Part shown: positions 2,782-3,222 of the stretch, piece by piece
Position numbering within the stretch: the first letter of the stretch is position 1
Layout of the letters: every line of letters starts with the position of its first letter
Origin: an uncultured archaeon
GTDB lineage: Archaea; Asgardarchaeota; Lokiarchaeia; Sigyniarchaeales; SOKP01
Assembly: GCA_964447495.1 (NCBI GenBank)
Contig: CAYUTF010000015.1
Location: 1 to 10,286 of the forward strand
Length of the DNA: 10,286 bases
Direction: 5' to 3'
The notes under the pieces: model-generated
Database searches by the model: none
What the model was told of the DNA's origin: nothing
What the model saw: the letters and a program-made list of their open reading frames with translations, nothing else
Made by a program: the position numbers and the translations under genes

Positions 2782-3222
2782 TTATCCTTGAGGCTTTCTT
2801 TTATTGAATAATTGCTTTAATTCACTCATAATCGCACCTCTCAAACTAACAGGACTTGCGGGGCGTAAGGCTCCTGGTGCTCCAGGCGGCCCACCTGGTG
2901 GCGGTGGTGGTCCTCCTGGCGGTCCTCCTGGTGGTCCAGTAGGAGGCGGGGGGGCGCTTATAGGAGTTGTAGGCGTTGCAATTATAGGTGTTGATAAACC
3001 ACTTCCTTTTTTAATATTATTAACTTCATTATTTATTGTATTAATCCTTGTTTCTATTGTTGATATTTTTTGATTTATCGCCGCTATTGATTGTTCGACT
3101 AAATCAGGAATTTTTAAAATCATAAACATCATTTTTTCAACAATATCTCCAAATGCATTAAGTTTTTCCTCAAGAGGTGCTTTTCTTGTCTCTTGCATAA
3201 AATTTGCGAATTCTTCTGCCAT
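2782..3222 (-). CDS. Coiled-coil + polyproline + C-terminal amphipathic helix protein (putative actin regulator, WASP/WAVE/VASP-like architecture)
   Basis: Ile/Val heptad repeat at aa 42-70, Pro/Gly tract at aa 91-116, and C-terminal SLRGAIMSELKQLFNKRK. The ORF is well supported; the function is inferred. Confidence 0.65.
   Translation of the reverse strand: MAEEFANFMQETRKAPLEEKLNAFGDIVEKMMFMILKIPDLVEQSIAAINQKISTIETRINTINNEVNNIKKGSGLSTPIIATPTTPISAPPPPTGPPGGPPGGPPPPPGGPPGAPGALRPASPVSLRGAIMSELKQLFNKRKPQG
2909..2937. repeat. 12-bp tandem repeat within the polyproline-coding GC-rich patch
   Basis: GGTCCTCCTGGC GGTCCTCCTGGT GGTCC on the + strand, encoding GPPG-type units on the - strand. Confidence 0.75.

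Follow-up and report, generated by a model that had tools for sequence, protein, structure and literature searches.

A conserved small Asgard protein whose flexible arm links a coiled-coil head to an end helix shared with the tails of Arf/Rag-like GTPases

A 146-residue open reading frame in archaeal DNA encodes a real, strongly conserved and unnamed small Asgard protein. It is pan-Asgard and mostly single-copy, and it shares a 16-residue helix at its C-terminal end with the tails of Arf/Rag-like GTPases. The window analysed here, that is, the whole stretch of DNA at its full length of 10.3 kb, derives from an Asgard (Promethearchaeota-type) genome which is 98% complete and which encodes four actin-family genes, the top score being 442 bits against Pfam Actin. 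The protein may be regarded as the free-standing form of a portable Asgard module, in which a flexible arm joins a coiled-coil head to a docking helix, in other words as an oligomeric tether, and I consider the chances of this reading to be about even.

Published Asgard actin regulators comprise profilins and gelsolins only, and formins and Ena/VASP polymerases are viewed as parts of the more elaborate machinery by which metazoans and amoebozoans migrate. Published work also leaves unsettled by what route the numerous small GTPases of Asgard archaea get to their targets. In the literature on Asgard actin regulators and on WH2, BAR and Arf proteins, no paper was found that describes the family of the 146-residue protein.

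A conserved gene of Asgard archaea

The coding sequence lies on the minus strand at 2782..3222, with its stop codon at 2782-2784. A word-indexed search returned 204 homologues, nearly all of them full-length. The 120 that were listed are 126-181 residues long (all but two at least 133) and 47-100% identical to the query, which they cover to at least 95% in all but two cases; the sources named among them are Promethearchaeota, Loki-, Thor- and Hodarchaeota. Moreover, proline runs are scarce in this AT-rich genome, in which only 15 stop-to-stop frames of at least 80 residues contain any run of four or more prolines, and the 146-residue frame is the only one of the 15 to contain two. Such rarity, together with some 200 conserved full-length homologues of 47-89% identity, places the open reading frame beyond chance. 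On the plus strand, a frame at 2804..3073 is the mirror of the protein's Pro/Gly codons. Neither Pfam (E ≤ 0.01) nor NCBIfam holds a family for the whole protein, and its matches in the ESM Atlas are unnamed Asgard clusters only.

Three short contigs of one sediment metatranscriptome span positions 2952-3248 with 1-5 differences per 151 bases, a match which indicates presence in an RNA library and is not proof of transcription; the stretches 2600-2951 and 3249-4100 have no such cover, and this carries no weight either way. In seven related genomes (G267, G221, G246, G255, G155, G275 and G168) the gene is matched as two overlapping pieces, split within the Pro/Gly tract, which may reflect frameshifts or assembly errors in a GC-rich repeat.

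Modules and predicted structure

An AlphaFold2 model was built on an alignment of 26 sequences. It opens with a short N-terminal helix (residues 2-14; 3181..3219, minus strand like all modules of the protein), in which A2, E4, F5 and F8 are invariant, followed by a long helix (residues 17-73; 3004..3174), both predicted with a pLDDT of 91-97. The first half of the long helix (residues 17-45) is almost invariant, and its second half (residues 42-72) is a heptad coiled coil whose a and d positions (46, 49, 53, 56, 60, 63, 67 and 70) are occupied by Ile, Leu or Val in the 26 aligned homologues. When PDB sequences were searched with the whole profile, coiled coils only were retrieved, the best being trimeric adhesin stalk fusions (E 3.4e-5). 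In coiled-coil design, Ile at both core positions favours a trimer; since the protein has Ile at both, the putative oligomer would probably be a trimer.

The arm (residues 74-126; 2845..3003) is disordered (pLDDT 42-55) and rich in Pro, Ala, Ser and Gly, and its length and composition vary within the family. It carries a Pro/Gly tract (residues 91-117; 2872..2952), PPPPTGPPGGPPGGPPPPPGGPPGAPG, with proline runs of four and five; the endogenous polyproline stretch within the protein reads GGPPPPPGGPPG.

The chain closes with the C-terminal helix (residues 127-142; 2797..2844), LRGAIMSELKQLFNKR, followed by K143. This helix is delineated by alignment, by cross-class comparison and by the AlphaFold2 monomer model, in which it has a block pLDDT of 80. 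Its hydrophobic face is formed by L127, I131, L135, L138 and F139, with K-R-K after it, and the Eisenberg hydrophobic moment amounts to 0.06-0.24 in 18-residue windows, an Arg lying within the apolar face. The tail as a whole has a net charge of +3 to +4 and contains neither an acidic stretch nor Trp. The three modules that the earlier note had read in these 146 residues, namely a coil at 42-72, a tract at 91-117 and a C-terminal helix with a basic end, are thus borne out by sequence, alignment and model alike.

Distribution and conservation

Records of the Asgard type are the only ones in which the family was found. Of 400 phylum genomes, 225 have a match to the whole-protein profile (A1) and 266 to the 27-residue tail profile alone (A4). 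The tail matches are nearly always single copies and sit in frames of 130-190 residues; among the matches listed, more than one copy of the motif occurs in 14 of the 266 matching genomes, GTPases that bear the tail being a minority. In contigs, taking one genome per species, 122 loci were confirmed. The 80 loci that were listed bear the label of an Asgard lineage in 69 cases and that of 'uncultured archaeon' in ten, and a single one (L022) is labelled as a Nanopelagicaceae bacterium, its gene order being the same as in the Asgard loci. Four families have neither the whole profile nor the tail (f13, 0/31; f15, 0/12; f18, 0/12; f19, 0/19). Lokiactin, which was found in 53 of 61 sampled phylum genomes, is nonetheless present in sampled genomes of f13, f15 and f19.

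Within the class to which the window belongs, 26 sequences have invariant residues both in the head (A2, E4, F5, F8, P16, K20, F24, G25, E29, M32, L36 and L41) and in the tail (L127-R-G-A-I, then E134-L-K and L138-F). Five further Asgard families have a divergent head and arm, and what their tails retain is P, R, a hydrophobic residue, the invariant E-L-K-x-L, F and basic residues. The end helix is hence the most conserved part of the family, with E-L-K-x-L invariant across classes, and the motif R..(I/L)..ELKxLF..basic makes up the C-terminal end of 118 of the 120 close homologues listed. The features by which members are recognised, that is, the head (residues 2-45), the heptad coil, the disordered arm and the helix of this motif, are all present in the 146-residue protein.

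Helix and head in other proteins

When 1.84 billion representatives were searched exhaustively with the profile, 193 matches reached E ≤ 1e-3. Among 151 representatives, the motif-ending proteins longer than 250 residues number seven and are all Arf/Gtr1-RagA-like GTPases. These GTPases are 394-518 residues long, and their last 120-140 residues match profile positions 17-145 at E 1e-5 to 1e-15. One of the tail-bearing GTPases (P0209) is named 'ADP-ribosylation factor-like protein' by NCBI, and three further ones are encoded in genomes G130 and G124. A word-indexed search for longer fused forms, run with the whole profile, returned one GTPase only, and no longer form carrying residues 107-146 alone was found in the word-indexed database; both results are weak evidence. 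Among 24 longer matches scanned with Pfam there is no gelsolin or profilin domain, and the four gelsolin-domain frames encoded in the window's genome contain neither a run of four or more prolines nor a copy of the motif.

The helix is also found away from chain ends. In the genome of the window itself, a 449-residue Ras-family GTPase (G000:C3, L092:895-2244, plus strand) has the helix internally, after proline-rich sequence, and has no head; over 15 residues (VSLRGAIMSELKQ and the two preceding) the helix is identical to that of the 146-residue protein, as are 42 of 49 bases. Some 200 residues of an unnamed helical domain follow the helix in this GTPase, its gene is adjoined by one that by eye looks like Roadblock/LC7, and the other genomes of the genus have one copy of the motif only. 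A second internal copy is present in genome G143, in a 697-residue protein with no Pfam family (L132:670-2763), in which the helix lies behind a PPPP stretch; the protein is rich in proline in a second stretch as well and ends in a hydrophobic segment of the membrane type. As for the head, it makes up proteins of 100-120 residues on its own and also occurs before or behind LRR, TPR and Ras domains. Since each is found without the other in other proteins, head and helix are separable modules. Judging from the sequences around it, the end helix appears to behave like a short linear docking motif in a disordered, proline-rich context.

Gene neighbourhood

Upstream of the gene, beyond an AT-rich spacer of 142 bases (3223..3364), a second minus-strand gene (3365..3988) encodes a protein of 207 residues; its translation probably begins with the ATG at 3988 (MCPIIT...), which lies two codons into the longest open reading frame. 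Its model (pLDDT 90) consists of three long helices of 50-71 residues. The top Foldseek rows are BAR domains (E 2e-3 to 3e-2, TM ~0.6), in the order arfaptin (E 2.4e-3, TM 0.6), Lsp1, SNX and I-BAR, and Pfam FCH was matched in three of 20 members of the neighbour's family (best E 0.0018). VIA-align also puts arfaptin first, with a Z of 13.6 that is near the noise level for helical bundles, and the neighbour is therefore called BAR-like and no more; BAR domains proper have three long helices and form banana-shaped dimers which bind membranes.

The BAR-like gene adjoins the 146-residue gene in 78 of the 80 listed loci, and the two others (L010 and L039) hold at most 96 bases upstream. Its occurrence is limited to the order to which the window belongs (135 of 400 genomes), and it stands beside the 146-residue gene in three arrangements, one in the own family, one in G131 and G132, and one in G130; in G135, G138 and G143, which are closed genomes from this order, the two genes are at least 259 kb apart. 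The wider block comprises a nucleotidyltransferase, two radical-SAM proteins, a GNAT protein, a Pelota-like protein and Elf1, in a conserved housekeeping order. The adjacency is accordingly a weak argument, for the whole block is conserved and the order may simply be inherited. Between the 146-residue gene and Elf1, a 556-residue protein with no Pfam or NCBIfam family is encoded at 953-2623 (minus strand) and occupies the same place in 55 of the 80 listed loci. In five other Asgard families no conserved partner gene was found, the neighbours being metabolic. The BAR-like protein is a possible partner of the 146-residue protein.

Relation to eukaryotic actin regulators

The earlier note had read the protein as a minimal WASP/WAVE/VASP-like factor, that is, a compact actin elongation or nucleation factor that could load profilin-actin. 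Spelled out, the end helix would bind the hydrophobic groove of Lokiactin, much like arcadin-2 or like WH2 motifs, whose site on monomeric actin is the groove between subdomains 1 and 3; the polyproline would recruit profilin-actin, and the coil would give multivalency. Such a factor now seems unlikely, if by no means negligible. The part of that reading concerned with layout and lineage stands: coil, Pro-rich arm and end helix are confirmed, the supposed actin-binding helix turns out to be the most conserved element of the family, and the restriction to Asgard-type records goes with the presence of Lokiactin in most sampled genomes of the phylum. The part concerned with kinship fails. For the last 46 residues there is no Pfam family at E ≤ 10 (HMMER filters drop many matches above 0.1), and the tail profile searched against 177,635 PDB sequences gives a best E of 1.2, with no WH2, VASP or other actin-binding-motif chain. 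Pfam EVH1/EVH2 (WH1) has no match in the 146-residue protein, and no SH3_1 (Pfam) was found in its genome. Searches of the genome for Pfam profilin, WH1 and WW gave no match either, a result of no weight, as the control was silent too. The method is able to detect WH2, since the profile (A5) of a 50-residue open reading frame of the same window, which served as positive control, matches N-WASP WH2 at E 5.2e-4; when the tail was aligned by hhalign with this WH2-like profile of its own genome, the probability was 0.5%.

The residues tell a similar story. The C-terminus reads ...ELKQLFNKRKPQG, and the WH2s of N-WASP read ...GIQLKKVEQ; the L-K-K-V/T-type step of WH2 has no counterpart in the basic tail, where its Leu is missing and the Gly position is Leu. 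By eye and without gaps, I131, M132, L135 and F139, together with R142 and K143, do match hydrophobic and basic positions of N-WASP WH2, which counts in favour of an actin-binding helix. As far as its sequence goes, the protein is laid out like eukaryotic actin regulators, and no sequence test links it to them. Two further candidates were tried and rejected, both matching the coiled coil only: CCDC53 as a sign of WASH kinship (E 4.9e-4, 21 bits, below the cut-off of 24.6) and a BRICK1 chain as a sign of WAVE kinship (E 0.55).

The 50-residue protein deserves mention of its own. It is encoded at 6358-6510 (minus strand), begins MAPIDKELQNEIKKGVSLQKV... and is conserved in 66 of the 80 listed loci. 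Its profile retrieves the tandem WH2 of N-WASP (PDB 3m3n_W) and, lower down, MIM and a second N-WASP chain; Pfam gives it no WH2 match. It may be an archaeal binder of actin monomers, of the WH2/thymosin type.

The GP5 tract, which had been taken as one of the three modules, is to judge from the homologues a clade feature of Loki-type members and not a family-wide one: a run of at least four prolines occurs in 108 of 118 close motif-bearing homologues versus 26 of 78 distant motif-bearing representatives (50%-cluster level). The proposed loading of profilin-actin loses ground accordingly, the tract being absent from most of the family, including most distant members. Along the same line, in a study of Asgard profilins, those of Loki-1, Loki-2 and Odin are reported not to bind VASP polyproline, and those of Heimdall LC3 and Thor to bind it weakly (PMC8410842). 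Families f13, f15 and f19, in which Lokiactin occurs yet the helix does not, likewise speak against the actin factor.

On the other side of the balance, arcadin-2 of Pyrobaculum calidifontis (PDB 5LY3) provides an archaeal precedent, its last 17 residues binding the groove of crenactin with a Kd of 31 nM (PMC5173319). In addition, Co-IP of Lokiactin from a cultured Loki archaeon significantly enriched an ARF GTPase, with two BAR-domain proteins below significance (PMC13716822); both kinds of protein are linked to the module described here. The WH2-like 50-residue gene, only 3 kb away, also adds to the case for an actin factor.

Proposed mechanism and alternative readings

The favoured reading, that of an oligomeric tether, would work as follows. 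The head would form a parallel oligomer from which several arms of about 50 residues extend, and each end helix would plug into a groove on a single conserved partner. In this way the free protein could cluster or tether that partner, to which the tail-bearing GTPases would also dock, or compete for it, and it would act where membrane, small GTPases and cytoskeleton meet. The polyproline of Loki-type members would then serve their clade as a stiff spacer, or else be a secondary ligand. Among partners that can be named, none is more likely than Lokiactin with its hydrophobic groove, though even this candidate is improbable. A more elaborate version envisages a trimeric Lokiactin regulator of WH2-independent origin, with the helix in the barbed-end groove in the manner of arcadin-2 on crenactin and Loki-type polyproline feeding profilin-actin, which would couple Arf/Rag-like GTPases to actin; it appears rather unlikely.

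Alternatively, the end helix might be a membrane-targeting amphipathic helix, in which case the 146-residue protein would serve as a coiled-coil spacer attached to the membrane, and the same helix would anchor GTPases that have no lipid modification. Terminal membrane-targeting helices are present in bacterial MinD and FtsA and offer an analogy; a hydrophobic face followed by K-R-K, the position of the helix in GTPases, C-terminal and behind a flexible linker, and a neighbour with a BAR-like fold would all be in keeping with such a role. Yet the hydrophobic moment is low and an Arg interrupts the apolar face, E134, K136 and R128 are invariant across classes, and two proteins carry the helix internally, one of them with a membrane-type segment of its own. 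These observations favour a protein interface over a lipid-binding helix, and membrane targeting is rated as rather improbable.

A protein interface could also be provided by the protein itself. If the end helix packed on its own coiled-coil head, packing in cis would give an autoinhibited bundle, and packing in trans a network capturing helix-bearing GTPases. In its favour, the two parts that are invariant, head and helix, are found jointly in most members as well as in the GTPase tails, the arm has sufficient length for the chain to fold back, and the helix reaches a pLDDT of ~80 in the monomer model. The existence of head-only paralogues and of helix-only copies in other proteins is harder to reconcile with this self-docking, which I consider quite unlikely.

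C-terminal helices of ESCRT-III have hydrophobic residues at i, i+4 and i+7 and a basic end after a flexible linker. An ESCRT-III-type MIT-interacting helix, recruiting Vps4 or another MIT protein, is very improbable, for in spite of a similar spacing and basic end the PDB search with the tail profile gave no ESCRT-III chain, there is no Snf7 or PspA Pfam match, the gene lies outside any ESCRT cluster, and Glu stands where the motif has Arg.

Significance

The end helix amounts to a short, synthesisable peptide with which the common partner of the free protein and of the tail-bearing GTPases might be fished out. Should this partner be Lokiactin, the family would supply a missing actin regulator and a direct link between GTPases and actin. 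If the trimeric Lokiactin regulator outlined above were real, that GTPase-to-actin link would come with a VASP/WAVE-like polymerase present in Asgard archaea before eukaryotes. With a partner other than Lokiactin, the helix would define a docking system new to the membrane and GTPase machinery of Asgard archaea.

Comparison with known systems

With WASP, WAVE and WASH the 146-residue protein has in common an N-terminal coil, a Pro-rich region and a short C-terminal helix, arranged in the same order, and in WAVE the coil is likewise at the N-terminus. These regulators, however, end in a C-terminal WH2 and a central and acidic region with an Arp2/3-binding Trp, none of which is found in the 146-residue tail; the end helix is, by eye, a partial match to the first helix of WH2. 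Ena/VASP proteins resemble Loki-type members of the family in having an oligomerising coil, GPPPPP-type repeats and a short helix. They differ in that the coil of VASP is C-terminal and serves tetramerisation, whereas that of the 146-residue protein is N-terminal, and in their EVH1/EVH2 domains, which the latter lacks.

Arcadin-2, compared by description, is a model of how the end helix might work, being a case in which an archaeal C-terminal helix alone binds its partner, in the groove of an actin. Arcadin-2 is encoded within the crenactin gene cluster, whereas the 146-residue gene (contig C15) is not beside that of Lokiactin (contig C4).

The likeness to the tail-bearing Arf/Gtr1-RagA-like GTPases is one of true homology, their tails containing the head helix, the coil, the arm and the end helix of the 146-residue protein, which for its part has no GTPase domain and has an extra, invariant N-terminal stretch (residues 2-16).
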